A DNA stretch of 64,000 nucleotides from Vampirovibrio sp. (GTDB lineage Bacteria > Cyanobacteriota > Vampirovibrionia > Vampirovibrionales > JAJTHC01): positions 1,291,331-1,355,330 of the forward strand of contig JACEUU010000003.1 of assembly GCA_024998755.1 (NCBI GenBank). Direction: 5' to 3'. The translations under genes and the position numbers were made by a program. Positions 27,362-52,842 of the stretch are shown piece after piece (within the stretch, counting starts at the first letter, position 1; each line of letters begins with the position of its first letter). A model generated the notes under the pieces. That model was not told where the DNA came from, made no database searches, and was given only the letters and a program-made list of their open reading frames with translations.

Positions 27362-29542
27362 CTAAAGCTTCTTCCATTTAAGACGTAATGCGTTAAGCAC
27401 AACGCTGACGGAGCTTAACGACATGGCTACCGCCGCAATGATGGGCGAGAGTAAGATGCCAAAAGCTGGATAAAGTATCCCCGCCGCCAAAGAAACCCCA
27501 ACCCCGTTATAGACAAAAGCAAAAAATAGATTTTGACGAATGTTTCGCATTGTCGCTTTGGATAAGTGAATGGCGGTAACTAGGTCTTTTAAATCCCCAC
27601 GAAGGAGCGTAACGCCTGCACTTTTCATGGCCACATCGGTCCCAGTTCCCATAGCAATACCCACTTCAGCAGTTGCCAGTGCAGGCGCATCATTAACACC
27701 ATCTCCTGCCATTGCCACAGAATGCCCTTTATCTTTTAGGGTTTGAACAATGCGGCTTTTGTCCTGAGGAAGAACGTCTGCATAAACCTCATCAATCGCA
27801 AGCTGCTTTGCAACGGCTTTGGCTGTGGTTTCATTGTCCCCAGTCAGCATGACGACACGAAGCCCTAACTGATGCAGTGCTTCAATAGCTTGCGGTGTGC
27901 TGGCTTTAATTGGATCGGTAACGGTAAGGAATCCGGCCAAGTCTGAGCCAATCGTCATAAAAACGACCGTTGCACCTTGGTTGCGGTACGTGTCAGCCTT
28001 TTTCTTTTGTTCCTCTGGCAACATAACCCCAACATCCTAGAGCAGGGCTTGATTACCCAAAGAAACCTGCTTGTCTTCTAACGAACCCGTGACCCCTTTG
28101 CCTGTTATCGATTTAAACTGTTTTACCTGGGTTAGGGTCAGCTGTTTTTTTAATGCCTTACGAACAATCGCTTCACCCAGTGGGTGCTCACTGCTTTGCT
28201 CTAAGCTTGCCGCTAAACGGAGCATTTCAGGTTCGGTAAAAGATTCAAGAGAAATGATGCTGGTTAAAACAGGATGGCCTTCTGTTAGGGTACCTGTTTT
28301 ATCAATGACTAACGTATCCACTTTTTCCAGGACTTCGAGAGCTGAGGCGTTTTTAATCAGGATTCCCAATCCAGCCGCGCGACCCATCCCAACCATAATA
28401 GACATAGGAGTAGCCAAGCCCAGGGCACAGGGGCAAGCAATAATAAGCACAGAGACGGCGGCAATTAATCCGTAGCTGAGGCCCTGAGTTTCTGCAAAAA
28501 GCGTCCACGCAACAAAGGCAACTGCTGCGATGAGTAAAACAATGGGCACAAACCATGCGGCCACTTTATCTACAACCCGTTGGATGGGTGCTTGGCTCAG
28601 CTGTGCGTCGGCCACCATTTTCACAATCTGAGACAGCATTGTATTGCTGCCAACTTTTTGAGCCCTGATGACAAGAGTGCCTTTGGCATTGATGGTTCCA
28701 CCAATAACCCCATCACCGACGCTTTTTGCAATAGGCATAGGTTCCCCAGTTATCATGGCCTCATCAACGTGGCTTTGTCCTTCAGTAACTTCACCATCCA
28801 CTGGGATTTTCTCTCCTGGACGGATTCGTAACAGATCACCAAGAACAATGGACTCAAGAGGAACTTCTTCTTCAGCCCCATCCTGTAACCGTCGAGCGGT
28901 TTTCGGAGCCAGATTCAACAGTGCTTTAATCGCTCCGCCAGTTTGCTCACGGGCTTTTAATTCCAAAATTTGCCCCAATAGTACCAAGACAATGATCACA
29001 GCCGACGCTTCGAAATAGACTGGAACGGTGCCGCCCGTCTGAAACGACGCTGGAAAGCTTTGAGGCGTTATAGTTGCCACAACGCTATAGAGCCAGGCAA
29101 CACCAGTGCCAAGAGTAATCAGAGTAAACATATTGAGTGACTGGTTAATAAGCGACTGCCAGCCTCGCCTAAAAAATGGCCATCCCGACCAAAAAACAAC
29201 TGGCGTAGCCAATGCGAATTGTATCCACGTTGAAAGCGTCTGCTCAATGAAATGAATATTGAATAAATGGTTCCCCATCTCTAAAACCAGAAGAGGAACG
29301 CTCAGCACCAGCCCCACCCAAAATCTTCGACTAAAATCAAGGAGTTGAGGACTTTTACCTTCTTCCTCTCCTGTGACAGTTTCAGGCTCAAGCCCCATGC
29401 CACACTTGGGGCAGATTCCAGGGCCTTTATGTTCGACTTCAGGGTGCATGGGACAGGTGTAGACAACCGTGCCTAGATCAATCCCAAAGACATCATCAGA
29501 GGTGGTTTTTTTTGTTTTGGCGTCATGATTGCAACAGTCCAT
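27362..29542 (-). pseudogene. copA: Copper-translocating P1B-type ATPase interrupted by an in-frame TAG
   Basis: N-terminal CPMHPEV/CPKCGM metal-binding site, CPC, DKTGTLT, and [10 protein letters not shown] hinge. The two ORF-track pieces (28037-29542 and 27362-28024) are in the same frame, separated only by the amber codon at 28037-28039 (...[15 protein letters not shown]...). Confidence 0.8.
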
Positions 29543-31197: not shown

Positions 31198-31740
31198 ATG
31201 ACAAAAAAATTATGGCAAAAATCGGCTATTTTGGGTGGCAAGTCGCAAGAGTATCGCTACCATCTGGCGAGACAGTGTTCAGGTCAAATACAGAAGCTGG
31301 AACATCCAGAGCAAGAGTTAAAAATGTCTTTTTTGTTGGTTGTGATGCTAAACCCAAGCACAGCGGATGCCGAAAAAGACGATAATACGATTACAAGGCT
31401 TATGAATTTTGCACGCCGACATGGCTTTGAACGGTTGGAAGTGGTAAATCTCTTTGCATTGAGAACGTCTAAGCCCTCTGAACTAGATAAAAATCCCAAT
31501 CCCGCTGGAGAAGATAATCCCAAATGGGTAGAAGGAAGGTTAAAGCAAGCCTCAAAAATTCTATTAGCCTACGGAACCAATTCGTTAAGCTCGCCATATA
31601 GTGCTATTTTAAAAGATCAATTGAAAGCTCTTGGCTTGGTAGAAAAAGTCTATTGTTTTCGTAAGAACAAAGATGGTAACCCAACTCATCCGAGTCGCCA
31701 CATGACAGATTCGTCCACTTTAATCCAATTTAATTTGTAA
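31198..31740 (+). CDS. DUF1643-family protein
   Basis: Family hallmarks MLNPSTADAEKDDNTITRL, VVNLFALRTSKPSEL and GNPTHPSRH. Confidence 0.7.
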   Translation: MTKKLWQKSAILGGKSQEYRYHLARQCSGQIQKLEHPEQELKMSFLLVVMLNPSTADAEKDDNTITRLMNFARRHGFERLEVVNLFALRTSKPSELDKNPNPAGEDNPKWVEGRLKQASKILLAYGTNSLSSPYSAILKDQLKALGLVEKVYCFRKNKDGNPTHPSRHMTDSSTLIQFNL

Positions 31741-31945: not shown

Positions 31946-31990
31946 AACGCCCCCGTTGCGATTGCGAAAGTTGCGAAAGTTGCGATTTTA
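31946..31990 (+). repeat. Tandem 9-bp repeat GTTGCGAAA/GTTGCGATT (about 4 units) upstream of the SIR2 gene
   Basis: CGTTGCGATTGCGAAAGTTGCGAAAGTTGCGATTTT, seen directly. Confidence 0.6.
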
Positions 31991-34900
31991 CCCTTCCTGT
32001 TTTAAAAACTGGTGGGCTTTTTGGTTTGCTACAAGGTTTGAAATTCGTTATAATACTTCTATTCTCGTTAATGTTTATAATGAAAGCTTATCATTGTTGA
32101 AATTTATACAACACCCCGCAGATTTACCGCCTGAATTACTGCAAGCCTATCAAGAACAAAAGCTCATCTTCTTTTGTGGGGCGGGGGTTTCCAACTATGG
32201 TGAGGAAATAGATAGCCATTACCATTCATTTGATGAATTATGTAGAGCCGTTTTAGATAGGTTTGATTTATCTTGGGAGTATAGACAATCCAATCTTGCC
32301 CAACAGTTGTATATACAACAAAGGTACGATGAATTACTTGAATATATGGTGGCACAGTATGGTTCTAAACAATTAAATGATTTTATTCAGCAATTGTTTA
32401 CAGAGCCACCAGCCCGTTTGAATTGTTCTCAGCATCAAACTATTTTAAAGTTGGCAAGTGGTGTAGGTGGTAGAATTGTAACCACTAACTTTGATACGTT
32501 ATTTACCAACGCACAGGAGCAATTACCTGAAAGTAAGCGTTTTAAAAATTTGTATGCACCTACCCTACCTATTGCTAGAGAAGAGCATTGGGAAGCGTCT
32601 TCTATTGTGTATTTGCATGGGGGTATGGAAGATACCAACCCCAAAAAACGACTAATTTACAGGAGTTCATGCTTTGGACAAGCCTATATTACTGATGGGT
32701 GGGCTGCCCGTTTTATTACAGAATTAGTGCAACATTTTCATCTTTGTTTTGTGGGTTATAGCATTAACGACCCTATTATGAATTATATGATGCAGGCTAT
32801 TAAAGTAAACGAAAAGAAACACTCTTGTCGTCGTTTTGTATGTCATGTTTCTGATTCGTTTATAGCTGCTAAAGAAGCTCAAACATTATTCAAAATTAAA
32901 GGGGTTGAACCAATAGCATTTAATACTTATCTTGATATGTGGAAAATACTGGATGAATGGCATGCCTTACAGCAACAAGATATTATTACTTTATGCCAGC
33001 AAGCATTTCAGTTGTTTGATCCTAAAGCCAACACCTTAATCCCTGAACAACGTTACGTCATTCAGCATCTAATCACTAAAGAAGAAAAAGAGTTTCGAAA
33101 ACTGGTAGAAGCGGTTACCGCAAAACAACTGCCCATAGGGTTGCTATATGCCATTGGACGCATCGATACCTTACAACGGATGGATAAAAGTGAACGAAAG
33201 AGAAAAAGCCAAGAGGCTGAAACGGATTTCGCTTTGTTTGATACGTTACCGAACTTAATCCAACCAGATTTTAAGCCAAACTGTTCGAATCCTTCATTTA
33301 GCCAATACGGGTACTTGTTTAGTCCAGCCAGCCAGCCGTTACACCCAGTAGCTTCTATATGTGCAACGCTTATTTGTCAAAACATCCATCAACCTGAAGT
33401 GTTGATGTGGGTATTGGAACAAAACGATGGTGGTTATTTAGCTCCATCTTTGGTGAATCAACTTAGTATTGCTTTACAGTTTTCTCAACATGAAGCCATG
33501 CCTGAAGGGCTGAAAAAGGGGTGGGAGCTTTTGTTGTTGAATCAACGGCTATTGCCTCGGGCAATTTCGAATGGGTTTGATTGTTTACCAGATGACCAGT
33601 TACAAAACAATACGCTTGCAACCCGTACCTATTTTACGCAAAAATTACGCCCTTACTTAAAGCTAACACCGCCTTATTACTATCGATTTTTTTTAGAACA
33701 GGATGATGAAAACAATCAACCCCTAGTTTACTATGAAGCAAAAATTGAATTTCAACAAAAGGATTTAACCTTTCACGAACTTGAAAAATGTAGCGAACAA
33801 ACAACAGACCCTGAGATGTTAATAGCGTTAATGGGGATTATTGAAAATACGGTGCATCAGTACTTACAATTGTTTGCTGAAATTGAAAAAGATGAGAGCT
33901 TTATACGTCTTTTTGAAATACCTTCTATCATAAGGCATGGACAAAATCAGGGTTATAGGCAGTTACCGCAGTTGTTTGCTGTTATAGAACTTTTGTTGGA
34001 CAAATTGGTTAAACAAAAAGTAGGCTGGTGTAATCAAACGATGGAACGCTATGCACAACAACCGCATACGTTATGGCATAGAATGGTATTAGCCTACACC
34101 ACTAAATATGAATTAAACCTAGAACCTGCATTGGCACTATTACGGGCTAATCAATACGCTTATATAGAAGTATTTAGCAGAATTAAAAAAGAATTTTATG
34201 AATTGCTAGAATATAAAGCAGACCGATTGCCTGATGATATAAGGCAAACTTGTTTTGAACTGTCACGCCAACCATCGAGAGATTATCAACAACACATTGA
34301 AGTAGGATGGGATAAAAACGAAAAATACAATGTGTTACGGTTGTTAAAAGCTCAAGGTATTGCGTTACCTGATGAAGCCTTAGAAACAGTGTATCAAACC
34401 TTATTGGAAGAACGTCAACAGTATCAACAGGCAGAAGACGCTACAGACCAATTCAAGTTTAGTGCTTATTCTACAGGGTTTACACGGGTTCAGCCCGATG
34501 CGATACCTGAAGAATTAAACGAAGGAAAAACTGACGCTGCGTTATTTGCGTACTTTAAAGGGGAGGGGGTTACCCATCGTTACCACTTGGATTTAGAAGA
34601 AACCTTCAGAGCATTTGTAGAAAAATACCCTGTACGGGCGTTTAATCAAGTATTTAAACCGTTATTGAATGAAAATGCTGCTCAATATAGCAAACTTTAT
34701 TTACGAGCGTTTGATTGGGGATTAGCTGCTTATATTGAACCCATCCATTCTTCTCCTAAGCAATCAGAACCTGAAGCATCGCCTCCTCCTCTGGTTACCC
34801 TACCAGATTTATGGACGTTAGTAGAATCGTTTTTTATGCTTGATACCGTGCATGATACCTGTCAAGCCCTTTACAGTAGTACCGCTTTTATTAGGAAGCA

Positions 34901-36011
34901 GTATAGAGCCTTATGGCAGGAAGATACCCATCGGTTTTGGCGGTTTTTTGAAATGGTGTGGCAACGGGCGGTACAAAAACTAGCCATTAGCGAGCAGAGC
35001 CGTCCAGATTTTTTATCTGATGCTATTAACGCACCCATTGGCAGATTAGTGGAAACATTATTGGATTTAGAACTTCAACGGTTGAATGAGAACCGTATTA
35101 GCACATTATTACCTGAAACGATTACTTATTTAGAAAGTATCCCCACCCTAGAAAACGGTACAATGTTGTACAGCCTGCTAGGTAGCAATTTAGCTTTATT
35201 GCTTAAAATGCACCTTGTTTGGACGGAAACACAGTTGATACCCCTACTAACTTCCACCACAGAACCTGAAAAAACCAAAGGGCTTGCTCTTTCAGAAGGC
35301 TTAATTGGCTATGGGCAGTGGACTGATTTAGTTCACAATCATTTAAAAGAATCGTTACTACAGTTAGATATGGGTGTTCATTTCAACGAACAGAGAGACT
35401 ACCAATTATTTAACAACTATGTATCTCGTATATTGGAATCTTATTTTGTTCCTCAGAATGAAGCACCTGATGTAGAAAAAATAACGCTGATAGAATTGCA
35501 CGCATGGTTGGCTTCCTTACCAACGCCAAAAAGTTTGGATTGTGTGGCTAGAGAACTGGTTGTATATTACAAACAGGTTTCTGTTGATGAAGCTGAAACG
35601 TTGATTGAACAGTTTTTAGCACCACTACTAACGAAGGGGTGGGTTAATACGGTAGATAAAAGAACCCCTCAGCAAACCAGTTGTTTTTTACAACTTGCAT
35701 TGGTGCATCCTAAGTATTTTGGTAAAATTATCAGCATCGTGAAAGAAGCAAACTTGATACTACGCTTACCTGATGAAGCCACATTCCATGATTTGTGTTT
35801 TTATTGGCTTGAAAAAGAACAGCTAGAAGCCTTAGCCCTAGAAGATTTTGAGTTATTTTGCAATGTAATATTAGATTATTTACCCCTGCAACCAATTAAT
35901 ACGAGTACGTATTTATTACAAGAATACTTGTATAAAAGGTTATTAGCACAGCAAACATATCCATTACCGAAAGCATTGGAAGCGTATTTTACTAGAATGT
36001 TACGCAACTAA
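31956..36011 (+). CDS. Defence-associated sirtuin (DSR2-like): N-terminal SIR2_2 NADase domain plus ~1000-aa helical C-terminal region
   Basis: SIR2_2 motifs in DSR2/ThsA order: KLIFFCGAGVS, IVTTNFDTL, IVYLHGG, CFVGYSINDP. The ORF-track start lies in a tandem repeat. The real start is probably TTG near 32094 (LKFIQHPADLPP...). Confidence 0.8.
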   Translation: MRLRKLRKLRFYPSCFKNWWAFWFATRFEIRYNTSILVNVYNESLSLLKFIQHPADLPPELLQAYQEQKLIFFCGAGVSNYGEEIDSHYHSFDELCRAVLDRFDLSWEYRQSNLAQQLYIQQRYDELLEYMVAQYGSKQLNDFIQQLFTEPPARLNCSQHQTILKLASGVGGRIVTTNFDTLFTNAQEQLPESKRFKNLYAPTLPIAREEHWEASSIVYLHGGMEDTNPKKRLIYRSSCFGQAYITDGWAARFITELVQHFHLCFVGYSINDPIMNYMMQAIKVNEKKHSCRRFVCHVSDSFIAAKEAQTLFKIKGVEPIAFNTYLDMWKILDEWHALQQQDIITLCQQAFQLFDPKANTLIPEQRYVIQHLITKEEKEFRKLVEAVTAKQLPIGLLYAIGRIDTLQRMDKSERKRKSQEAETDFALFDTLPNLIQPDFKPNCSNPSFSQYGYLFSPASQPLHPVASICATLICQNIHQPEVLMWVLEQNDGGYLAPSLVNQLSIALQFSQHEAMPEGLKKGWELLLLNQRLLPRAISNGFDCLPDDQLQNNTLATRTYFTQKLRPYLKLTPPYYYRFFLEQDDENNQPLVYYEAKIEFQQKDLTFHELEKCSEQTTDPEMLIALMGIIENTVHQYLQLFAEIEKDESFIRLFEIPSIIRHGQNQGYRQLPQLFAVIELLLDKLVKQKVGWCNQTMERYAQQPHTLWHRMVLAYTTKYELNLEPALALLRANQYAYIEVFSRIKKEFYELLEYKADRLPDDIRQTCFELSRQPSRDYQQHIEVGWDKNEKYNVLRLLKAQGIALPDEALETVYQTLLEERQQYQQAEDATDQFKFSAYSTGFTRVQPDAIPEELNEGKTDAALFAYFKGEGVTHRYHLDLEETFRAFVEKYPVRAFNQVFKPLLNENAAQYSKLYLRAFDWGLAAYIEPIHSSPKQSEPEASPPPLVTLPDLWTLVESFFMLDTVHDTCQALYSSTAFIRKQYRALWQEDTHRFWRFFEMVWQRAVQKLAISEQSRPDFLSDAINAPIGRLVETLLDLELQRLNENRISTLLPETITYLESIPTLENGTMLYSLLGSNLALLLKMHLVWTETQLIPLLTSTTEPEKTKGLALSEGLIGYGQWTDLVHNHLKESLLQLDMGVHFNEQRDYQLFNNYVSRILESYFVPQNEAPDVEKITLIELHAWLASLPTPKSLDCVARELVVYYKQVSVDEAETLIEQFLAPLLTKGWVNTVDKRTPQQTSCFLQLALVHPKYFGKIISIVKEANLILRLPDEATFHDLCFYWLEKEQLEALALEDFELFCNVILDYLPLQPINTSTYLLQEYLYKRLLAQQTYPLPKALEAYFTRMLRN
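32026..32054 (+). promoter_or_regulatory. Sigma-70-like promoter: TTGCTA - 17 bp - TATAAT
   Basis: The -35 at 32026-32031 and -10 at 32049-32054 with exact 17-bp spacing. A 6-codon out-of-frame uORF (ATG 32080, MKAYHC) overlaps the likely TTG start at 32094/32097. Confidence 0.5.
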
Positions 36012-36555: not shown

Positions 36556-36862
36556 AGACACCGAACATTGTGCGAAGCCTCCACAACAGAACGGCTGGTT
36601 ATGGTATTCTCTATCCAAAGCGGTGGCATGACAGTTTGATTGAGACCCTACAATAGCTGTGAAATCTGAGAAGACTTGTAGAGAATTCAAGCAAAAGGTA
36701 GAGTCTACAGGACGTTTTTTCGGCTATATTACGGCTACTTTTTGGCTATGAAAGCAACGAATCCATCAAGCTAAGCCATCAAAAAACCCTGACAAAGGCT
36801 TGCTTATTTCATCCGTATCGGGTAAAATCGGGTATAATCAGGTATGTTATCGGGTATTTTTT

Positions 36863-37918
36863 ATGAATGAAGTCACACTTTCTTTATCTTCCGACCTTGT
36901 CAAACTCATTGCTGAGATTGACGAGTTTAAAGGGCGTTGGGATGCCTTAAAAGTTTTGTCTCCTGAACGCTTGAATGCCTTAAAACATACGGCAACTATT
37001 GAAAGCATTGGCTCTTCCACCCGTATTGAAGGGGTTGCCTTAACAGATGTTCAAGTAGAAACATTACTTTCTAACCTGCAAATGACCTCTTTTAAAAGCA
37101 GAGATGAGCAAGAAGTGGCGGGTTATGCCGAAGCGATGGATCTGGTGTTTCAAGCCTATGCGGAACTTCGCCCCACGGAAAACCATATCAAACAACTGCA
37201 CCAGCTTTTATTGAAACACAGCTCCAAAGATGACCGTCACCGTGGACAGTATAAAACACTCGCCAATCACGTTGTGGCGAAGAACGCTCAAGGTGTTGAA
37301 GTAGGCATTGTTTTTGAAACTACCACACCCTTTGACACCCCCCGTGAAATGGAAGAGTTGGTGCATTGGCTTAACAAGGCTATTCAGGAAGAGAGTTTTC
37401 ATCCGTTGTTGCTCGTGGCGGTGTTTGTCGTGTGTTTTCTTGCCATTCACCCTTTTCAAGATGGGAATGGTCGGTTATCCCGTGTTTTAACAACCTTACT
37501 GCTCTTGCGGGCGGGCTATGCGTATGTGCCTTATGCGTCTTTGGAACATGTGATTGAAGAAAATAAGGATTTATATTACAAGGCGTTACGCCGTACGCAA
37601 TTGACCCTCAACTCAAGCCAACCCGATTGGGAGCCTTGGCTGGGATTCTTTTTGCGTTGTCTAAAAAAACAAAAAGACAGGCTTCAACAGCGATTGGATA
37701 AGGAACGCCAAACCTCTAGCATAGATGAGGCACTGCCGTCCTTGTCTATAGAAATTTTAAAACTGCTAAGCCTTCATGAACGGTTGACCATTGCGGAGAT
37801 AGTGGGACTTACCAACGCCAACCAAAACACCCTCAAGGTAAGGCTTCGGGAGTTAGTGGCACTCGGTCGAATACAGCGTTTTGGCAAGGCCAGAGCAACT
37901 TGGTATAGATTGGCATAG
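36863..37918 (+). CDS. Fic/DOC family protein (AMPylation fold) with C-terminal winged helix
   Basis: Fic motif HPFQDGNGRLSRVL and C-terminal wHTH LTIAEIVGLTNANQNTLKVRLRELVALGRIQRFG. Start taken at MNEVTLS. Confidence 0.8.
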   Translation: MNEVTLSLSSDLVKLIAEIDEFKGRWDALKVLSPERLNALKHTATIESIGSSTRIEGVALTDVQVETLLSNLQMTSFKSRDEQEVAGYAEAMDLVFQAYAELRPTENHIKQLHQLLLKHSSKDDRHRGQYKTLANHVVAKNAQGVEVGIVFETTTPFDTPREMEELVHWLNKAIQEESFHPLLLVAVFVVCFLAIHPFQDGNGRLSRVLTTLLLLRAGYAYVPYASLEHVIEENKDLYYKALRRTQLTLNSSQPDWEPWLGFFLRCLKKQKDRLQQRLDKERQTSSIDEALPSLSIEILKLLSLHERLTIAEIVGLTNANQNTLKVRLRELVALGRIQRFGKARATWYRLA

Positions 37919-38532: not shown

Positions 38533-41520
38533 TTACCTAGCAAGACCATATCGTTCTTCCCTTTTTTGAAAGGCAGTTTTTCCTCCTTCCAAAATGCCAC
38601 ATATGCGATCTCTAATCCCTTCGGCACGACAGTCTTCCAGAGGACCAGATGAATATCTAATACAAGGAAGTCCCCCACTCTTATCGCATTCAGCAATAAT
38701 TACTTGTTCTGAATCAGTATTCACAACTAAATTAGGGTTATGAGTAACTAGAAAAATTTGGCGACGTTTTTTTGCTTCTCGGAAATGGGGAACCAGTAAA
38801 GAGTAAACAGACTCATTATCTAAATTTTCTTCTGGCTGATCAACAATCAAAGGCCGAGTGTCATCAACATCTAAAATAAGATAAAGAATTAGTAACACAA
38901 TCCCCTTGGTACCTGGAGAAAGTTTATCCAGTTCAGTGTTGTTGTATCGCAAACCATACTCAAGAGTGAATGATGCCACGGATACTATAGCCCTCAAAAT
39001 ATCATCAGGCTTGCTCGATTTCTTTAGAAAGGTATCATAAACAGCCTGTTCACAATCGAATGCTATAAATAAATCTTTGACTGATTCTATAAGTAAATCA
39101 TTTTGCAAGTTGCTCCAATAAGATTGGAGTTGTTCAGCTATATTGGCTACCTCATCAATGCTCTTAGGAAGAGACGAAAAACGGCGACCATCAAACAGGT
39201 TCTCTATTCTTTCGTTCCAACCTTTAGTATCAAATCGCTGTCGAATATAAAAGCTTAATTGTTGGTTGCCCAGTCCTGTCCTGTTGAGATGCTCCTCAAC
39301 AGGCTTGTAAAGCTCTGTTAGCAAATCATTCTCTTTTTTGAACGACTCAAAAATCTTTCCGAAGTGTACCCAAATTTGGGATAATTTGTTAGTTATAGCA
39401 GCAACGTCGCTTTCCTCAATCCGCTTTACCTCAATACGAAGTTGGTTCAGTTCGCCGTTAATTTTACTTAGCTGTGTCTGCAAGGATTGTATTTTTTCCC
39501 TAGTTGCTTGGTTCGATGAAACCTGTGTTTCCAGCTCCTTCAGCTTACCTTCAGTCCAAAGAACTGTACCCTCACTCGCAGGCTCGTTGCCGAGGATACC
39601 CTGAACCTTGGATTGAATGCTTGTTTTTGACTCTTCAAAAAGGTTACTAAATGTAGGGAGTAATGCAGTTTTTGGGATTAGAATATCATTGCTATTGGAA
39701 TGCACCAGTCCGAGGTCTGAAACCCGCAATTTAATGGATCTAATAAATTCATCTGTATTTGAATCAAATGAGGCAATATCTTGATACAATTCATCGATAG
39801 AAAGAAGGCGTTCCCGTAAAGAGGCAACCTGCTGATTTAAGCTCTCCAAGTCACTTTGATACTTTGCTAAAGACTCGGTAAATATTGCTTCATCTCCTAT
39901 AGCAAGGGAATCAATTTGATCTTTGAACTGCTTACTATTCTCCTCAAGCTCTTGTATTTTTATACGCTTTGCAGGCAGTGTTGAAATCCTGTCTCGGAGT
40001 GCAAGTCTCTCCGTAATCAAGCCCTCTATAGTTGTGACGTGTTCACTACGCTCCTTATAGATCTGTGCAGTTTGACGCGATCTCAGTTGGTTGAATGAGG
40101 AGGTGCCATAGCGCAAGTCTATTGGAATGTGAGAAAAGACGACCTTCTCAACTTCGGTTGCCAGGGTACCTCCCGCATGATCTTCAGAGCAGAGTTGCTC
40201 AACAAATCGTTGCGAAAGGTATCTTACGCCAGAAGAAGTGGAAGGGGCTTGATTGAGAGTAGCCTCAGATTGCTTTCCGTCAACCCATGCAAGGGTAACT
40301 TTTGTGCCATCAAGGTGTTCTTTTGCACGCTCAATAAATGTTTGTTTCTGATCTGATGACCATCCCCCAGCGGCATAAGCAATTAACTCAGCTAGAGCGG
40401 ACTTGCCTGATCCTCGTGCACCTACGATGGATACTAAGCCACGATTAAGTGGTATTTGAGTACTCCCACCAAACCAGAGATCATTTGCGGATGTAATAGA
40501 TACAGACTCAATAACATGAGCATCCACGTGATGAATGGGTGGAACCTCGCCAATGAAAACACGATCGGCGGGTTCTGCTAATATTTGTCGAAGACCATCA
40601 AAGGTTGGATCTGCCTTTATCCAGCAATAACGTTTCTGGGCTGGCTCTAATAAAGTGGTAAGATCATGTGCATCACAGCCATGTAGACAAGCTTTTTGCC
40701 CACCGCATTGATGTAAAGTATCATCGTTAGAAGGGACTCCAGTTTTCCCAAGCCAAAAATTCCTATCCTGCGGATTCGCAGAAAAAATGGCGTGAGATCT
40801 GGCAGAAATATTTATCCGTAAAGCTCCAAATCCACCTTGGAAACTAAGCCCACCAATACCATCTTTTCCTCCTGAGACAATAATAATCGAGTTAACTTTT
40901 AACCAAGCTTGATTGTCATACCATTCGAAGAATGCAGTTTGTTCGATTTTGAACTGATTAACGCCTTCACGGTATGCAGAAGCGTCATCCTGTATAGAAG
41001 GTTCATAATCTTTGCCCAGTCGAGTTATATCATTCTTAGTACAACGGTAACGCCTGCCGTTACTGTACGAAAATGTTAGCTCTTCTAGAGCTCGATTAAT
41101 TTCGTTCTCGTGAGATGGATCATCAGGTGATATCAAAAGATGTAGGTTAACACCTTGACCAGAAGACGTTTGTGGAGAAATACGAAACTCTATGTTGGGG
41201 AATATCTCGCAAATATTTTGGATTCGGTTGTTTGTGTACTTTTCTAAACGTACTTTAGAGTAGTTGGTTATTGACAGATAATCTGTAATTCCAAGCACAG
41301 CAACATCATTCTTCGATTCAATAATTGAAAAATACGCATCCCAGTCACCTTTAAAACGATCTTCCAAAGCTGTGCCCGGTGTGTGTATATGTAAATCCCA
41401 TCGCTTCCACTCGGAACCTCGTTCAATAAACAGCCTTTGGCCTGACTGTAACCCTTTTTCAATAGGTGATTTTAGAACTGTGGTTATCACAGACGACGCT
41501 TCCATTTTCTGCTCCATCAC
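38533..41520 (-). CDS. PHP-domain phosphoesterase fused to a coiled-coil SMC/Rad50/OLD-like ABC ATPase (995 aa)
   Basis: N-terminal PHP motif [10 protein letters not shown]. Walker [15 protein letters not shown]. Central heptad-rich region. C-terminal ABC signature/Walker B/H-loop [16 protein letters not shown]. Overlaps the DUF499 gene by 4 bp, so operonic. Confidence 0.8.
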
Positions 41521-44348
41521 TCAAACTCCGCATTCTTGAATTTCAGAACAGAACAGTTTTCTTTCACATCACGTTGAATCTTATCATCAAAGGCTGAAGC
41601 AGTTTCAGCTCTGAGTTCAATATGTAGGCTAACCTTGACATCGTGCCGTGCTGAAAATTTTTGTACTACCTCATCAACGATTTCGGCAAAGGCTAACTTG
41701 GCCTTGATCGGATCAAGCTCGACTGTGCCATAGAATGAACGCTTTACCTGTAGAGACTCAACAGGCATAGATCCTGGCTTGGTTGAGAACACTCCTAGTT
41801 TAGTAGGAAATGGGCTTACAGTTCCTGTTGCTTCCGATACAGATCCAGGTTGAGCATCAGGATTTGTAGGAATTTTAACAGCTTCGGCGGCAGCTTTCTG
41901 CACAAGCTGCTCCAAAGCTACCGAGGGCTCTACCAACAAAAGACTTGCATCCAGAATTGGTATTGTTTCGTTTCCAAGTGTCAAGCCCAAATACCCGTTT
42001 GCATCCTTCCCATAAGCCAGGCCAAAAAAGTCTTTACTACTTGCTCCAATTGCCAAAGTCTTCTTGAATGTCTCCTCATCCCGCAAGCGTGGCAGATAAA
42101 GATAGTTACAGCATTTCTGCCACACTTCGAGAGCCCCTGCGTTATGTTGAGGCTCTTTCCAGAACCAATTTTTCAGGAGGTTTGCTAAATGAATCGGAGC
42201 CCATTCGCTAATCAGTAATTCGTTTTCTCGCAGCCTTAACTCGACCTCTTTCACAAGATTCTGGCTACCACTAGATAGCGCAATAGGTTCCCAGATGATT
42301 TCGGAAAGTCCCTTCCCTAGTCTTTCTTCCTGAATAGGAACAAGCAACCATCGGTAAGTTTCTCGCACCATACGAACCAGAGCCTGTTTTGTATCCTCTT
42401 CATTCTTCTGTGCTTGCCGCGTTTGATATTGATCAAGATTAAGCCTCAGCTCTTTGATATCTGCGTTGATTGATTGCCATGCAAGCACACTACGCACCTG
42501 ATCGCGGAGTCGGGCAAGACTATCAGAGTCTGCAGCAAGGAAAAGTAAGCGATTTTGGCGAAGACGGGGCTGGTCTCCACGTCCTTTGAGGATTTCGGTA
42601 GCCTTTTCCACCGCTATACTAGCGGTAGCCTTTAAGTAACCTGCATCCAAACCCAAAACCACTAGGCGAAGGCTGGAATCATCCGGTACATCACCACTTT
42701 GGGCAAAAATATGAGAAGAGAATACCCCTCCTCTTAACAGCACTTGTAGTTGTTGTTTAACGAGCGGAGACACGTCTTCGCGATCCTGAAAACGACGCTT
42801 GCGGTCTTCCATCTCACGACGTAAGTTTGGTCGAGTATCAAACCAAAAACGACTATTGCCACTGTTGAGGTAGTGAAGGCGGTCAGTCAGCCGCTTGAGC
42901 GCATCCTTGAAAACCGCTACTTGTTGGCCGGGCTGAACACATCCCAGAATGACCCGCTCCAGCTCGATCCCGCGCACCATTTGTCCACCAGTCGTGGGTG
43001 CGCTACCTAAAAAAATCGTCCGAGCTGCTCGACGTGCTGCCTGAACGGAACCAAATCGACCCTCATTGTCAATATTGACAGTCGTCTCTGCTTTTTCTCC
43101 GTCGATATCACGCTCTAGTACAGGATCCCAACCTTGGGGCAGGTAGTAGATCGCTTCGTTACGAACGTCAGAGTCATATAGGGGGATGCTTCCTGGCATC
43201 ACCAGCAAATCGGTGTTGTTATCCTTCCAAAGCCTGTGTATGACCTTGGCCATTAGCTTTAGGACGCCCCGAGTACGCTGGAACTTATCCAAGGTTGACC
43301 AGTCTTCATACAGCCGATCAAAAACTTCTGGATGAATGGGGTAAGCATTCTTCAGCCGGTCGAAATATCGCCCTTCAATGGTTTCATGGGGAAACTCCCC
43401 ATCGTTTTGAATGTAGGTGTCGGCGAAGGCCCGACATACCTCGTCCATAGCTTTGGGGTCACTGAAGCGAACGAATAAACGTCGGCGGACGATCTCGAAG
43501 GCTTCTTCGGTTGCAACAGGCTTCCAAATGGCCTGAACCCGACCAAAATATTTCTCTAGCGCATCTAGTGCAGCCTCAGCCCTTGCACTACCAACCTCCA
43601 GCTTGGATTCTGGTAGCGAGGCCAACAATATGGCGTTGGGCACCGATTTTAGTGCTTCGGTCAGCGATTGAATAAAGGTTAAATTGCTATCAAACGTGCC
43701 GGCCGGATAGCGTTTCCCTTCATCAAACTGGCGCAGATAAGCAACCAGCTCGTCCATGAGGATGACGCAGGGTGCATGTTCCTTGAGCAGTTGAGAAAGT
43801 GTGTCCTTGGCTGGAGACGTTCCGTTGGCATCCGATTCTTTAATCTGATCGAACGCAGTAGCACCGCCTAGTTGCCAGGCAAGTTCACCCCACAAGGTAC
43901 GGATTTCATGGCCATTACGTTTGCTGGGTTTGCTGGGGTCAAGATTGATACCGTCCAGCACCACCAAACGCGCTTTGGGTAGTTCGGTAATACCTGCTGC
44001 ATCCAGGATAGCGGAGATTCCTTGCAGTTCGCTAGCGGGAACCTCGCCTTTGGCTAAGTGATAGACGGCCAGCATGGTATGGGTTTTACCGCCACCAAAC
44101 GCCGTTTGAAGCTGGATAACCGGATCCCCACCTTGTCCTGTGATTCTTTTTGCCACGCTACCAAGCAACAAGCGCATGCCTTCGGTAATGTAAGTACGTT
44201 CAAAGAAATAAGCAGGGTTCTGGTACTCTTCAGTTGCCGACCCGGCATGAACACGCGACAGATCAGCGGCAAACTCGGCTTGCTGGAAAGTGCCTTTCAG
44301 CACGTCTTCATGGGGAATGGCGACTTCACGCCAAGGTTTTAAGGTCAT
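41517..44348 (-). CDS. DUF499-family ATPase (BrxC/PglY-like)
   Basis: Canonical DUF499 N-terminus [30 protein letters not shown] and P-loop [12 protein letters not shown]. Confidence 0.8.
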
Positions 44349-44367: not shown

Positions 44368-47277
44368 CTACACTTCCAGTTTCATCTGGGTATTAACGCG
44401 GCCTGCCTCGTGCGATGCTTTTTCGACAGCATACCAGGCGGTAATCAGCTCATTATAGAAGCGGGCTTCTTCTGCCCAGCCTTTACGCTCGCATAGGGTA
44501 TAAAGGCGATAAGCCAGTTGGCGAATGGCTTCCGTACGTTCCGGCATACCTGCTAAAAGGCTTCCTGCTTCGCTTTCGCCGCCTTTGTTCAAGGCACGAA
44601 TCATCTGGTGCAGGGCTTCCCACACCGGCGTGTTGTTATCTCTGGCCGGATGCCAGTCATCGGGGTATTCCAGAACTTTGAGCAGGCGCACTTTGCCAGC
44701 CCCAGACTCAATCACACCAGCGTCTTTTAGACCTTCAACACTGGTGCCCTTGGCACGTGCCAAAACATCTGCCTGGCCAAACACGCCAGAAGCCCAGTTA
44801 TATTCATCAAACCAAGCGATGCAAAAGCGGGTATCGGCATCCAGTTCGCCTTCGGCTTCGTTAAAATAATCGTCAATTGATTTATTGATCAGGGTAAGTG
44901 CTGTATGGACGCTCATCGGTGAGCCGTCGGCTTCTAGCACTTCGGTATATTTGCTAAACACGCCCATACCGGGGCCAATGGCGGCTTGCGCCAAATCCAC
45001 TGGGGCAATGGGGCTGTGGGCACCTTTACCGCCAATCATGGCTTCCAACGCTTCGGGAAGTGTTTCTTTCAATTCTGCCAGAAACTGACGGCGATTAATG
45101 GTTTCGGCATGGGCAGGGCGTGGGCGACAGACCAGCACAATGCTGGATGCTAGTGCATTGGCACCAGAGCCGATCATGCGGTTTGCTAGCTCGGTACGCA
45201 TGGGCCAAGTGCCTGTTAAGGCAAAACCTGATCGAATGACCGCTTCCAGAAAGGTTTCCCAGCCGGTAGAAGAGGTGCTTCCTTCTTTGGTTTCGGCCTG
45301 TTTGAAGGCATAGTAAATGCTGACGGGGAAGGCCCCATGAGCTTGCACTGCCAGATTATGCATCGCTTGGGTCATGCCATCGAGAAAGAATTTTTCGGCG
45401 TTTTGCTTGTTGCCGTGGCGGTATGGCGTGGCCACCAGTTCTTCGGCCTTGGGCACAGCTAGTGTACCCAATAATTCGGGTAGCACGGTTTTCAAACTTT
45501 TACGCAGCCAAACATAGAAAAAGTCAGACAAATCAGCATAGCCGATATTGTCGTAATAGGGGGGATCCGTGGAAACGACCTTGTTTTGGCTAATAGTTTG
45601 GGTTTGGGCATCATTCTGCCTAACGCTTGAATCAGTTGTTGCGGGCAAATTATGAAGCAACTTAATTCCCGATTCGATGCCGAGCAGAAAATTTCCAGAA
45701 GAATCACTAAATGGATTTGCTTCTGAAAAATCCCAGACCATTGGTAGAGCTTGACGGCCGAAGGTACTTGTAATTGTATCTCTTCCGGAGTGCCAAGAAC
45801 ATATATTGGACCAATAGTTGGCTCCCTTATCAACCGCAAAAGCCAAATAAACCGAGACAGCATCAGCATAGGCGGTGGGGCCTGTGCCGCCTTGCTCCAG
45901 TCCAAGGCCATCGTCTGCCCATTCGTTGGCCAAGGCGTCTTCCAGCACTTTGTTGCGGGCTTCCTGCACCAGGTCGCTAAAGGTGGTCAACGCCACCAAT
46001 TGCCGTGGCGTGAATAGATCGCCATAAGTCTTTAGTCCATACAACGGGGGAGAGAACCAACGAGGATTCTCTGGCATCGCCACGTCTGGCTTCCAAGAGG
46101 GTTCAGCAATTCGTGCGATTGCTTCCATCTCTTGCGTGGGCTCCAGATAAACTCTCCCCCTAGAGCCTTCTGCAACAATGGCCATCAAGCGAGAGCCCAT
46201 TCGCCCTGCATTTGCTTCAGAATAAATGTAGGCTGGCGCAATGGGCGTATCGGTCATCAGACAGCGGAAATTTGCTCCTCGTGACAGCTTGGTACCTGTC
46301 TTCACCGTTTCGGCATGTTTTGGCGTACCCGTACGGATAGTAAACTGATAGCGGTCGCCTTCAATCACTGGCTCAACATAGGCTTCCTTGCCCTTTTTGG
46401 TGCTTAGGTAAAAGGTGCTGGCCAGTGGTACATCCACATGGCTAAAGGCCGGGTTGGGGCTTTTCACCGTTCTTGCCCAAATCCAGGCAATCACGGTGGC
46501 TTCGCCACCACCGTATTCTTTGGGCAACGTTACCTTGGGGTATAAATGGCCAATACGTTTAAAGGCTTCTTCCCGCATCCAATGGCCATAGCGTCGTACA
46601 TCTTCCGCCAGGCCTTTCGCACCGCTCCAGTCTTCAATAAACTGAGCAGGTTTTTTCTTATCTTCTAGACCTTCCTTTGTTAAAGGGCCAATCGGTTTAC
46701 GCCCAGCAAATTTGGGTGGTATTTCAATCATTGCCTTGTTAATCAGCACAGCTACCGGGTTTAAATCGCTAGCCCAGCTTTCCAGCCCCAACCGTTGTGC
46801 TTCCAGCGGAATCGCTCCACCGCCAGCAAAGGGATCGTGAAAGGCGGGCAATTTCTCGGGGTTAAACAGTTCGGCTGCTTCCGGGTGGTTCTTGTTCAGA
46901 TCGCAGGTTTCACGCCAGCTTTTCCAGATTTCGGCGCGGGCTTCGTTCAGCACGGCTTCGTTATTGGTATTTTCCCACAGCACCAGCTTGCGAATAATTT
47001 CAAACAGCCGTTCCCGATCTAGCTGGGCGGCTTGCTTGTTCATCCCTCGGTTCAGGTGGCGTTCATAGCCGGGGTCATTGACCAGTTGGGCAAATAATAC
47101 CGCCCGTGCTGCAGCCAAAGGCCGTCGTGCCCACCACAAATGCAGGGTAGAAGGATGCCCATGCCGAATAGATTTTTCTCGTGCCGATGCCACATTGATG
47201 TCATCCAGGGGCAAGGCCACTTCAATCAATTTTTTGGGTGCCTTAATGGGCACAGATTTATCAGTAGCAGGTGGCAT
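44368..47277 (-). CDS. DUF1156-family N6-adenine DNA methyltransferase
   Basis: DUF1156 signature [41 protein letters not shown] and catalytic motif [14 protein letters not shown]. Confidence 0.85.
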
Positions 47278-47295: not shown

Positions 47296-49326
47296 TTAGT
47301 TTATTTCTGGCAGTATTAACGGGCATTCATGGGGCGCCACTGCTCGTGATAATAGCTCATCAAGTTCAAGGTTGACGCTGGCAGCAAAGTCTTCGGGTTC
47401 TTTGCTAAACGGCTGGTGAATATAGAACGGCCCTTCGGTTGTGTCACCGTCGACCAGCACCAACGCCAAAATAAACTTTTCCTTTTGGTTTAGTCCGTAC
47501 AAAATCTCGTTACGGCTCACGGTTATGATGCTTCCATCTTTTTGTCGCCCTTTTACTTCAATGTGCCGCTCTAGGGGTAACACCATGCGACCATCTGGCA
47601 AGCATTGCCTGCCTGGCCGAGAGGTGATATCCCAGCCCACCTTATCCGCTGAGACATCTGTCACTGTATGCCCCAAGGCTTCTTCTGCCAAAAGTACAGC
47701 TTGCATGGCCAATTGTTCCACACGCAGGCGTGCCAACACATCAACGGGAGGGGCTGGCTTGCCCTGTTGTTTTGCTAGGAACCCTGCAGGAATAATCAAT
47801 GCCCCACCTACAATAATAGGCGTGGCAGAAACCACATGGCGCATGGCATTGAGTTCTTTGGTACGTTGCTTCAGTCTGGCAACCAGTTCGTCCATGGTTC
47901 GGCGGGCATTTTCTGGCTGCATACGGGGTTGTTTTCCGGCTTCCATATCTTCTTTCAGTTTTATGTAGCGATCCTCCCAATAGCCAATTTCCTTTGCCAA
48001 CCGTTCATGCACAGCCGCCAGTGTTTTTTCAACCAAATGCTCACGCAGTTCTTTTATCTCGCTGTAATGCTCTGGTACCAGTTGGGTAGAAGCGTAATTT
48101 AATGCCAATTGCTCCAGATTTTGCGTGAGCCAAGGCTGTTGTAATAACTCCTGAACCAAGAGCTGTTGATGCTCATCCAAGGCTTCATAATCCAGATGTG
48201 GCCCCCATCCTGCAAACGTCGCCTTGCCATCTGGAGTAATTTCCACAAACTGAATTCGACGAGAGAGTGTCCGCTTGCCGTCGTCGTCGTTACCGTCTTT
48301 CACCGCTTGGTCTATTAGAAACATCATGCGGGGCGTTTCGCCAGCATCATTGGGATCTAACAAAACAGCACCCTGTTTTAAGTGGTTGCGAGACTGTTCC
48401 AGAATCAAGTCTACAAGCGACTGCATTAGCGGGTGTCCCGGATGAATCAAGCTGGCTTTGGGCTTATTACGAAGATCAATTTCCTTCTTTTCAAAGCAGA
48501 TGCGCTCGTACTTTAAAACCACAGGGTTACGGTTCGCCCGATTTCGTCCTGATAAAACACGATCACGCTCGCGAATGATGCCTGGTACATGACTGATTTC
48601 AAAACGACCTGGTTCACGCGGCTTTAAATCGCCACCCAACTGAGCAAAGGCTTTTTGGAAAAAAGCACGAATAAAGTAAGGCTGGAGCTTTCGGGCTTCT
48701 GCCTTGTCCATTTCTTCTTTCACCTGAAACAATTGCTTTTCTGAAAAAATCTGTTCACATAATGCATCATTGTCAATAAGCTTTTGCAAATTACTTGTAT
48801 CCAGTGCACCAGAGACTTTTTCATCTTGCCTAGCCAGAACTTCTGGGTCATCGCCATAGCGAATAGCTTCAACCAGCACATCCTTAAGAGAGACACCTTG
48901 AAAAACCTTGCCTAGAATGTCGTAAACGCGACCGCCTAAAGCTTTTCGTTCTATCTCCAGCTTGTTAAACAAGGTTTGAAAGACATGACCTTCTGCTGTT
49001 TCACCAGCTAAAAGATTCCATAAATGGCAGATCTGTTTTTGCCCTATGCGGTGTATACGTCCAAAACGCTGTTCCAATCGATTGGGGTTCCAAGGCAAAT
49101 CATAATTGACCATTAGATTGGCATTTTGCAGGTTTACCCCTTCCCCTGCAGCATCTGTTGCCACTAAAACACGGGTTTCAGGATCATTACGAAACAGCTC
49201 TTGCGCCTTGCACCTATCTTCACGCTTGGTCCCCCCGTGTATTTCAATGACCGCTTCCTGTTTGCCTAACAGGGTCCGAATACGATCTGTCAAATAGATA
49301 AGCGTATCCCTGTGCTCTGTAAAAAT
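47296..49326 (-). pseudogene. SNF2/DEAD-type helicase C-terminal half with C-terminal DUF3883 (restriction-endonuclease-like) domain; N-terminal motor half lost at the IS junction
   Basis: Helicase motifs IV-VI ([33 protein letters not shown]) and DUF3883-like tail GWDITSRPG...IEVKGRQ. The first 40 codons of the track ORF ([19 protein letters not shown]...) are read-through into the IS terminus, not helicase. Confidence 0.75.
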
Positions 49327-50485
49327 GAAGTTACGGAAAAAAGGGCAAGGTAAAATAGAAGGGACATTATTCCACCTCTCATAGGATACCCCACCCCCAT
49401 GACTACCTTTGCCGACATCCAAATTCAACAAGCCACCCCCACTCACAAATTCCTAGAGGAAATGAACCAAACCCTACCATGGCAACTATTTGAAACTATC
49501 CTCAAAACACACATCCACCACAAACCCAACGGCAGACCCCCCTACAAACGCCTACTACTGCTCAAAATGAACCTCCTCAAAATATGGTTCAATCTCTCCT
49601 ATGAACAAACCGAATTTCAATGCCACGACAGACTCTCCTTCCGAAAGTTTCTCGGCTTCTCCTTAGAATCCCCCATCCCTGAAGCCACGACACTCGAAAA
49701 CTTCCAACACGAACTGCAAAACACCCCAGCCCAAGAAGCCCTTTTCTTAGCCTTAGACACCTTCTTTCAAGAGAAAAACCTCATTCTCAAAGAAGGCAAC
49801 TTGGTAGATGCCACCTTTATTAAAGCCAATAGCAAACAGAGAAAAAAACCTGAAGACCAGAGCGACCCTGATGCCACTTATGGCTACAAGGGGTTTGGTT
49901 ACAGTGCCACGGTTAATGTGGATGCTAAAAGCAAGTTGATTCGTAAGGTGGTTGTTACTGGGGCCAATGTGCATGACAGTCAGAGTTTAATCCCTGTATT
50001 GGTGGGCGATGAGCAGACTGTTGGTGCGGATAGTGGTTATGTGGGCAAGGAGAAGGATTTAAAGGCATTGGGGATACAGCCGAGGATTATTAAGCGTCGG
50101 GTTCGGGGTAAGCAGCATGAACCAACGCCTGAGTTGACGGCTTCGCAGAAGCGGTTTAATGGGTTGGTTTCTAAGGTTCGGGCAAGAGTGGAGCATGTGT
50201 TTGCGGGTTGGAAGACGGTGTTTAAGAAGGTTCGTGTGTCTTGTCGTGGGTTAGTGCGTGTTTCTGCGGAGATTTTGGGCTTGGCATTTGGGTATAATTG
50301 TCGTCGGTATGGTTTTTTGGTGAGGAGGGGGGTAGGTTTTAGTGGATTCTTGTATGGTTTTTAGGTAATTATGATCCGAAAAGAGTGGAAACAAGGGGTA
50401 TTGTTCTGTTTTTTGAGCATTTTTGGTTGAATTTTATTAAAAAACACTCACTACTCCCACCTGCACACCCTTATTCCGTAACTTC
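49327..50485 (+). mobile_element. IS5-like element copy 3 (1159 bp), no target-site duplication
   Basis: Same IRs as copies 1 and 2. Flanks are AAAT and ATCG. Left flank is mid-helicase, right flank is mid-hsdM. Confidence 0.85.
49399..50364 (+). CDS. IS5-family DDE transposase (321 aa), intact
   Basis: About 98% identical to 13536-14501. Confidence 0.85.
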
Positions 50486-51999: not shown

Positions 52000-52842
52000 A
52001 GCATATGGAAAAGGGCATCATTCAAACTCATAAAACGACTCGCTAAGGTCTATGAGGGTCAGCATGAGCCCATTATTTCAGAGGCAGTCTTTGAACAAGT
52101 GCAAAATCAGCTCAAGCAACGCTTTAAAGACAACGAGGCTCGTAAGGTGTATACCCTTCAAACCAACTTATTAAAGGGTGTTTTTTATACCGAAGCAGGG
52201 GAACGCTTTAAGTATTCCAATGCCAAAAAACACCAGAAACGCTTCAATTATTACGCTGTCAAAGGATGCTACTTACCCGCCGAACAAATCGATGAGCCAG
52301 TGCTTCAAGCACTGGCTTTTTTAAACCTCACTCAAGACACATTGAAATCATCTATTGCCAAAGTGATTTATACCAAACAAAAAGATTTCGGCCAACTGGA
52401 AATCCATCTTACCCTAGATGAGACACTCGGCAGGTTAAAATTGCCCCCTCAAGCAGTTTTAAGCATGGATCAAAAAACCCTCATCTTAAGCACCAGCATC
52501 CTCATTAACAATCAAGCACAAACCACTTTAAGAGGGCATCGAAACAAACGGATTCTATCGATTCACGAGATGAATGAACAGTTGATTCAAGGACTTTCCT
52601 TAGCGTGGCATTACAAAACCCAATGGAAGCAGGGAGTCAGCGTTCAAGACATAACCCTCGCCGAAGCATCAGGGAAAAGAAAAATACAAAAGTATCTAGC
52701 CTTAACGCTTCTGTCCCCTCCGATTATTGAATCAATACTCGACTACCAAAACCCCCAGCAACTCACGCTGACCCAGCTAATCGATCTCGCTGAAAGCACC
52801 TCGGATTTTGAACAACAAGCACTGGCTTGGTTTGGGGCATAA
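52000..52842 (+). pseudogene. Degenerate C-terminal fragment of a large serine recombinase
   Basis: Frame opens 10 bp after the hsdS stop: SIWKRASFKLIKRLAKVYEGQHEPIISEAVFEQVQNQLK resembles the recombinase domain, but the zinc-ribbon cysteines are lost and there is no catalytic N-terminal domain. Confidence 0.5.

Follow-up and report, generated by a model that had tools for sequence, protein, structure and literature searches.

The trlF-like gene and the domains of its product

The 64,000-nt window studied here (the whole stretch of DNA analysed, from contig JACEUU010000003.1 of the Vampirovibrio sp. assembly GCA_024998755.1) carries a trlF-like gene on its minus strand, immediately after the hmaC gene of a truncated Hma operon. 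We found that its product, TrlF, joins an N-terminal PHP (polymerase/histidinol-phosphatase) phosphoesterase domain to an SMC-type ABC-ATPase head that is split by an antiparallel coiled coil. The coding sequence, taken from the list of open reading frames (ORFs) and the translation, runs over 38533–41517 and encodes 994 aa, with an ATG at 41517 and the stop codon at 38533–38535. A GTG at 41520 offers an alternative start that would give 995 codons (38533–41520, minus strand). The ATG shares 1 nt with the hmaC stop codon (TGATG), and a GGAG lies 8 nt before it; we consider this ATG the more likely start, and residue numbers below refer to the 994-aa version counted from it. The preliminary description of this DNA had placed the protein at 38533–41520. 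The ORF is indeed there, on a strand (minus) that was left unstated, and every motif quoted at the time is found in the translation: the PHP motif, the Walker A loop, a heptad-rich string and a C-lobe block of ABC motifs.

Judged from its sequence, the ORF is a genuine and intact gene whose matches lie far beyond chance. A protein from a Vampirovibrio sp. metagenome-assembled genome (MAG), P0001, recorded as a ‘hypothetical protein’ with an NCBI call of 985 aa, is 100% identical to it. At E ≤ 1e-10 it matches 2915 database proteins altogether, and for the best 120 of these the identity is 40–45% across more than 95% of the length. A scan for promoters and terminators returned no more sites than shuffled sequence did, and the 614 nt downstream of the gene hold no credible ORF and none of 80 aa or more.

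The PHP domain occupies 40543–41418 (minus strand, aa 34–325). Because the larger ABC part masks it, the full-length model gives SMC-type Foldseek matches only, and aa 30–330 were therefore modelled on their own so that the PHP domain would be visible to structure search. The predicted domain has the distorted (β/α)7-barrel of the PHP fold, with a helical insert of ~100 aa between strands 4 and 5, and RNase AM and EndoQ are both among its top structural matches. The putative metal ligands H43, H45, D79, E110, H126, H279, D282 and H284 sit at strand ends in the model and are invariant or at least 90% conserved in alignments of 63 and 36 sequences. The PHP motif originally singled out corresponds to aa 40–49; the His of the second PHP motif is replaced by Tyr (TD-Y80), and the last motif reads H279-G-x-D282-A-H284. 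The preliminary description had named the absence of a PHP fold as grounds for abandoning its N-terminal PHP call. The fold is found in the predicted structure, together with conserved His, Asp and Glu ligand motifs, and so the call stands.

The relationship of TrlF to PHP proteins is detectable through fold and motifs, not through sequence profiles. Pfam PHP (PF02811) matched neither full-length TrlF nor any of seven isolated N-terminal domains at E ≤ 10, and a hidden Markov model of the PHP domain alone gave 0 matches at E ≤ 10 against PDB sequences. Among the N-terminal domains scanned, that of the related protein Ppl (discussed below) was alone in giving a Pfam match to PHP_C, at E 0.026. 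A local hhalign comparison of the domain profile with E. coli YcdX reached a probability of 9% and is not significant; the pairing of the HxH, TD[H/Y] and GSD[A/S]H motifs in the same order in this non-significant alignment is suggestive only.

The remainder of TrlF was examined in a model that AlphaFold2 produced from an alignment of 63 sequences (mean predicted local distance difference test score 85.9, predicted template modelling score 0.72), in which the first 29 residues alone are disordered. The N-terminal lobe of the ABC-ATPase head (40078–40512, minus strand, aa 336–480; Pfam AAA_23 and SMC_N) holds the Walker A loop GARGSGKSA (aa 366–374, 40396–40422) and the Q-loop residue Q436. Next comes the antiparallel coiled-coil insertion (39280–40068, minus strand, aa 484–746 by DSSP of the model), with ascending helices over 484–601 and descending ones over 626–746, about 120 residues per arm. 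Its apex (~602–625) is modelled with low confidence and contains a conserved F-x-P-x-F. The translation has no Cys in the apex region (~600–650), hence no CxxC hook, so TrlF lacks a Zn hook. Pfam and NCBIfam give weak SMC/SNARE-type coiled-coil matches to the centre of the protein, and the heptad-rich string lies at about aa 676–700. The C-terminal lobe (38536–39270, minus strand, aa 750–994; Pfam AAA_21 and SMC_N) gathers its motifs within 38731–38922 (aa 866–929): the LSPGTKG signature, the Walker B LIVD893-Q894, the D-loop L899-D900 (NLD) and the H-loop H926 (VTHNPN). Walker A, Q436, LSPGTKG, D893, L899-D900 and H926 are all invariant in the 63-sequence alignment.

Foldseek searches of the PDB with the full-length model returned JetC (2.6e-9), Rad50 (5.6e-9), MukB, SMC, RecN, LmuB and RecF, and the matches cover SMC-type heads plus their coiled-coil arms. 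By phmmer, full-length TrlF gave weak matches to Rad50/SMC P-loops alone in the PDB, and no Ppl structure. The SMC-like head proposed at the outset is thus confirmed by the matches to JetC, Rad50, MukB, SMC, RecN and LmuB, and the coiled-coil-like centre by the long antiparallel helices of the model.

The Walker B motif departs from the canonical form. Gln, in place of the catalytic Glu, follows the Walker B Asp (D893-Q894) in 63 of 63 TrlF proteins, and E. coli Ppl likewise has Asp-Gln at this point (LLLDQPEDDLD). In ABC ATPases, replacing this Glu by Gln traps the heads in their ATP-engaged state and slows hydrolysis. An invariant Gln at the catalytic-base position would make the TrlF head less a fast motor than a dimerisation switch that senses nucleotides; this natural ‘EQ-type’ Walker B suggests that the head works mainly as a nucleotide-dependent switch.

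Family membership, relation to Ppl and distribution

The window protein matches the NCBIfam profile NF045780, ‘TrlF family AAA-like ATPase’, with 612.4 bits against a cut-off of 350 (E 2.3e-183), and aa 34–992 of the 995-aa translation align to profile positions 1–944 of 944. Weaker, partial NCBIfam matches are to Spaf_1101 (150 bits) and to Ppl (NF042955; 125.4 bits, cut-off 1000). The latter score falls below the Ppl cut-off, and the window protein therefore belongs to a sister family and is not Ppl itself. Pfam finds only SMC_N, AAA_21 and AAA_23 in the full protein. PADLOC-DB v2 has no TrlF model; its best match is a partial one to Ppl (102 bits), and the C-lobe has weak matches to the ABC ATPases LmuB, AriA, PtuA and HEC-01A. 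Plasmid homologues of the window protein are named ‘TrlF family AAA-like ATPase’ by the annotation pipeline PGAP. The window protein is a further member of an already named and curated family, and its PHP–SMC architecture is not new; we regard its identity and architecture as a TrlF-family PHP–ABC protein as close to certain.

Ppl was represented by WP_015059139.1, a PGAP-annotated ppl product from an E. coli IncF plasmid. BLASTP aligned it to TrlF in collinear segments, namely the N-terminus with GSxWxxxDxHxHTP, the stretch from GSDAH to Walker A, and the C-lobe at 37% identity. In hhalign the two align with a probability of 99.6% and E 1.5e-23 (TrlF columns 262–985 against Ppl 195–888). By these alignments TrlF and Ppl are homologous and share the same architecture, as members of separate families. 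The likeness drawn in the preliminary description to single-gene PHP-plus-ATPase entries in defence-gene catalogues was exactly right: the entry is Ppl. Ppl is a validated single-gene defence. A 2026 review (PMC12904381), summarising Xu et al. (Mol Cell 2026), describes it as a single-stranded DNA 3′–5′ exonuclease that nucleoside triphosphates (NTPs) inhibit by binding to both the PHP and the NTPase domain, and that is switched on by the 3′-OH ends that phage homing endonucleases produce. In PhageMaP data there is a phage counter-defence gene against ppl.

Relatives of TrlF are present in at least 577 species genomes, scanned at one genome per species, across many phyla. We sampled the neighbourhoods of the 80 best loci plus four others. 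A conserved partner gene was sought by clustering 823 neighbouring ORFs from 82 loci, and none recurred: the commonest neighbour family occurs in at most 7 loci. The neighbours that do recur are P4-type integrases, HsdM, HsdR, VirB4, VirD4 and an AAA_21 ATPase. Among plasmids, 1142 records have a TrlF match, and 819 of these are conjugative; in 317 the match extends over 80% or more of the query. The plasmid genes stand alone, beside Abi, PLD and Gabija-like genes. Phage genomes rarely carry TrlF (7 of 50,697 records). Such a distribution is that of a defence gene that stands alone and moves horizontally.

Several individual loci deserve mention. The sole long phage match is in Microcystis phage Mwe-JY31 (PP438423.1, 16108–18786; aa 33–990, 54% covered, 32% identity), and the remaining six phage matches cover the C-terminal ~100 aa only. 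At three sampled loci (L071, 12998–15537; L067, 13182–14876; L072, 13109–15672) a same-strand AAA_21/AAA_15 ATPase of ~554 aa directly follows TrlF, and at L071 and L072 this ATPase is followed in turn by a ~292-aa protein without a Pfam match; this arrangement may represent an ABC-ATPase defence cassette of two genes that moves together with TrlF. The closest TrlF relative, P0002 (45% identity; L168, 5772–9712), has a HATPase_c_3 gene upstream, and downstream come a SIR2_2 protein of 402 aa and one of 911 aa without a Pfam match, another defence-island setting. In a Brevundimonas MAG (L003, 6958–12895) the TrlF homologue lies directly downstream of polA, and the temperature-restriction locus (TRL) of Photorhabdus, from which the family takes its name, lies between polA and dsbA. 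Adjacency to polA was considered as a TrlF trait and rejected as coincidence, as it occurs at 1 of 84 TrlF loci.

The Hma operon and the rest of the window

Upstream of trlF and co-oriented with it lie three hma genes. The gene hmaC (41517–44348, minus strand) encodes a DUF499 AAA+ ATPase (PADLOC HmaC, 1467 bits over the full length; Pfam DUF499), and hmaB (44368–47277, minus strand) a DUF1156 N6-adenine DNA methyltransferase (PADLOC HmaB, 1668 bits over the full length; Pfam DUF1156 and MethyltransfD12). Of hmaA there is a remnant (47296–49326, minus strand) that keeps only the C-terminal ~670 aa, with Helicase_C and the NOV_C nuclease domain. It matches PADLOC profile positions 516–1173 of 1176 only, so the Hma system is not complete here. 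The N-terminal ~500 aa of HmaA, with the Snf2 ATPase lobe, are absent from the entire window, the flanks of two further insertion sequence (IS) copies described below included. In tblastn, four full-length HmaA proteins from metagenome loci match from residue ~465–510 on, at 49329–47305 and nowhere else in the window. What had been described as a ‘methyltransferase/helicase module’ is therefore the Hma system, with the correction that its helicase gene is truncated at an IS. The gaps between the hmaA remnant and hmaB and between hmaB and hmaC are 18–19 nt. From gene packing only, we infer that trlF is co-transcribed with the hma genes; translational coupling of trlF to hmaC is probable.

Hma consists of three genes, for a helicase, a methylase and an ATPase (PMC8565338), and has recently been reclassified as a Type-1 BREX-related DUF499 system (PMC12839542); its defence activity resides in HmaA, through the Snf2 and nuclease domains (PMC11232893). 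Hma defence requires the Snf2 domain; as the Snf2 lobe is lost, Hma is probably inactive at this locus, and with the system broken by loss of the helicase half of hmaA, TrlF most likely acts independently of it. Inserted genes, most often ABC-ATPase defences, have been reported in about 63–66% of Hma loci (10.1101/2024.01.29.577857; PMC11232893), and Ppl has been seen in Halomonas hma regions (PMC11232893). A PHP/ABC gene lying against an hma operon thus follows a described pattern. The particular pairing of Hma with TrlF is not conserved and is no trait of the TrlF family. Hma was found at 0 of 80 TrlF loci, one of which has a remote DUF499, and a TrlF-like gene at 0 of 80 metagenome Hma loci (HmaC identity 56–82%), 40 of which have at least 3 kb downstream of hmaC.

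The window contains three copies of an IS4/IS5-type IS of ~1.15 kb, each with a DDE_Tnp_1 plus DUF772 transposase and the terminal inverted repeat GAAGTTACGGAA. Copy 1 (13465–14622, plus strand) is flanked by the 4-bp target-site duplication TATT, and copy 2 (25585–26710, transposase on the minus strand) by the 4-bp duplication AAAT; copy 2 has also lost 42 nt internally and gained 11 nt close to one of its ends. Copy 3 (49327–50485, plus strand) abuts the hmaA break. Its flanks read AAAT and ATCG and form no target-site duplication; as they differ, the two flanks were originally not contiguous. This points to an IS-mediated deletion or recombination as the source of the hmaA break, or possibly to an assembly misjoin at the repeat.

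The other flank of trlF is a defence island. It comprises a 1351-aa SIR2 protein (31956–36011, plus strand) with a 199-bit PADLOC match to Dsr1 that covers the N-terminal SIR2 part only, a DUF1643 protein (31198–31740, plus strand), and a SoFic-type Fic protein (36800–37918, plus strand; 169 bits) whose gene converges on trlF. Just beyond IS copy 3 lies an orphan hsdS-like restriction-modification (R-M) specificity gene (50893–51990, plus strand; Methylase_S, PADLOC Specificity_II), with no cognate methylase or restriction gene seen near it, followed by a 247-aa ORF without a Pfam match (52099–52842, plus strand). A heavy-metal P-type ATPase is split into an E1-E2_ATPase/HMBD and a HAD hydrolase ORF (27362–28024 and 28037–29542, minus strand) about 650 nt from IS copy 2; the split marks a pseudogene, a frameshift or an error of sequencing. 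Adjoining IS copy 1 is a 640-aa ORF with no Pfam or PADLOC match (15375–17297, minus strand).

Proposed function and comparison with known systems

We consider the TrlF of the window best explained as a self-contained, single-polypeptide putative nuclease directed against phages or other mobile genetic elements and independent of Hma, with a probability of roughly 0.7; a defence role as such is likewise probable. In this proposal trlF would have landed at the 3′ end of the Hma operon, a known hotspot for inserted defence genes. By homology with Ppl, its PHP domain would act as a metal-dependent exonuclease on DNA 3′ ends and would be kept off by NTP-bound dimers of the ABC head, possibly with a nucleotide at the PHP site too. 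NTP depletion in the course of infection, together with exposed DNA 3′ ends, would then switch TrlF on, and the activated PHP domain would degrade replicating phage DNA and so halt phage replication. That TrlF follows Ppl-like gating in such detail is drawn by analogy, and we put it at slightly less than even odds.

Several points weigh against this proposal. TrlF and Ppl have low identity in their alignments, about 23% over aligned columns, with 125 bits against a cut-off of 1000, so that substrate and trigger could differ. PHP enzymes include 5′–3′ exoribonucleases such as RNase AM and endonucleases such as EndoQ, the very proteins that are top structural matches of the predicted domain. In Photorhabdus, the mutations that made TRL temperature-tolerant were all in trlG and none in trlF, and the role of trlF was left open (PMC7554251). 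The searchable literature contains no paper that combines TrlF with phage and no phage-defence test of a TrlF-family protein. Finally, the 1-nt stop/start overlap of hmaC and trlF is also what a functional partnership with Hma would be expected to produce.

Such a partnership would make TrlF a fourth Hma component, an accessory or back-up nuclease licensed by HmaB methylation or by HmaC sensing. The tight, co-oriented packing of the locus (18–19 nt gaps between the hma genes, the 1-nt overlap and a good Shine–Dalgarno sequence) speaks for it, as does the diversity of auxiliary or back-up nuclease effectors around BREX-related systems (PMC12839542). However, no linkage was found at the 80 TrlF loci or at the 80 Hma loci, of which 40 are informative, TrlF stands alone on hundreds of plasmids, its sister Ppl is a single-gene system, and HmaA, truncated here, is itself the effector that Hma requires and already brings a nuclease domain. 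We therefore judge a fourth-component role very unlikely. Still more specific is the idea that TrlF was recruited, translationally coupled to HmaC, as a replacement or back-up nuclease after the loss of the HmaA helicase-nuclease, with HmaB methylation and HmaC sensing gating the PHP–SMC exonuclease. If true, this would be a natural case of effector swapping in an epigenetic defence system, but we give it very little credence.

Two further roles can be weighed against the defence proposal. TrlF could be a stress or growth-arrest module of the Photorhabdus TRL type rather than an anti-phage protein, since the trlF that gave the family its name belongs to the TRL operon, and this operon brings growth to a halt at 36 °C (PMC7554251). 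Yet that phenotype was mapped to trlG, with no trlF mutants recovered (PMC7554251). The window has no TrlG- or TrlR-like partner, with the 614-nt downstream region free of a credible ORF, and no recurrent partner appears in the 80 related loci or in the plasmids examined. TRL itself, moreover, looks like an abortive-type defence locus, and we consider a TRL-type role very unlikely. A housekeeping DNA-repair machine like SbcCD or Mre11–Rad50, acting on hairpins or double-strand breaks, would share the domain logic of an SMC-like ABC head, a coiled coil and a phosphoesterase, and Rad50 and RecN are among the structural matches. The distribution of TrlF is instead patchy and horizontally mobile, on conjugative plasmids and beside integrases, type IV secretion and R-M genes; there is no conserved synteny, and the gene lies in a defence island here. 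TrlF also lacks the Zn hook and has Gln in place of the catalytic Glu that Rad50 and SbcC need for ATP hydrolysis, which leaves a repair role very unlikely.

With the defence proposal preferred, a ‘hypothetical protein’ of a Vampirovibrio (Melainabacteria) MAG can be named as a TrlF-family PHP-nuclease/ABC-ATPase and a probable stand-alone defence gene. Members of the TrlF family were counted in at least 577 species-representative genomes and on over 1100 plasmids, most of them conjugative; the family is thus very large, and it is a well-motivated defence candidate. The natural Asp-Gln Walker B of the TrlF/Ppl clade fits a nucleotide-sensing switch and opens no new category.

Of the known systems, SbcCD and Mre11–Rad50 share with TrlF an ABC head of the SMC type that an antiparallel coiled coil interrupts, a metal-dependent phosphoesterase and, as proposed for TrlF, action on DNA ends. 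Whereas their phosphoesterase is calcineurin-like and a separate subunit, TrlF has a putative PHP nuclease fused in cis, and no calcineurin-like phosphoesterase gene was found among the neighbour genes scanned. Compared with Rad50/SbcC, the coiled coil of TrlF is short (~120 aa per arm), there is no CxxC Zn hook, and Walker B reads D-Q rather than D-E; the TrlF gene is, in addition, mobile and not core. The resemblance to Rad50/SbcC noted in the preliminary description accordingly holds for the SMC head and the coiled coil, but not for the Zn hook or the length of the coiled coil. Its comparison with OLD nucleases was loose: no TOPRIM domain was matched in TrlF by Pfam, NCBIfam or PADLOC, the protein ends in the ABC C-lobe, and its coiled-coil-bearing head is of the SMC kind.

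The name trlF comes from the Photorhabdus temperature-restriction locus trlR-trlF-trlG, in which TrlF bore the annotation ‘histidinol phosphatase’, with an ATPase (PMC7554251). The TrlF of Photorhabdus laumondii belongs to the same family, NF045780, as that of the window, and enterobacterial plasmid members (for example from Y. ruckeri), taken as stand-ins for the prototype subgroup, are only ~25% identical to the window protein. The prototype lies in trlR-trlF-trlG next to polA, whereas the trlF of the window follows hmaC, without TrlG or TrlR. A TRL-type operon is not found at this locus, which has nothing of 80 aa or more downstream and hmaC upstream; that context is no part of the NCBIfam definition, and its absence is therefore no bar to membership of the TrlF family.

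The ABC-ATPase cassettes embedded in Hma operons (HEC-01 to HEC-04, Septu and PARIS; Payne et al. 2024 preprint) resemble TrlF in combining an ABC ATPase with a nuclease, in the same orientation, in or against hma. They use TOPRIM, NERD, PIN or HNH partners, whereas TrlF uses PHP, and they lie between hma genes, whereas TrlF is appended after hmaC.

The closest parallel is Ppl. Like TrlF it is one polypeptide, with a PHP domain (GSxWxxxDxHxHTP ... GSDAH), a Walker A GxRGSGKS, a coiled-coil insert and a C-lobe that shares SPGxKG, DQPExxLD (with Gln after the Walker B Asp) and the H-loop; it is likewise borne on plasmids and defence islands and has been reported within hma regions. Ppl (PADLOC PDLC02208, NF042955) differs in forming a separate equivalog family, with an overall identity to TrlF of ~23%. 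The window protein is ~100 aa longer and has a larger PHP insert, and Ppl has been tested experimentally as a defence, whereas TrlF is assigned by homology. Given a curated family, a characterised sister and a published Hma hotspot, TrlF of the window belongs to a known kind of system rather than to a new category.

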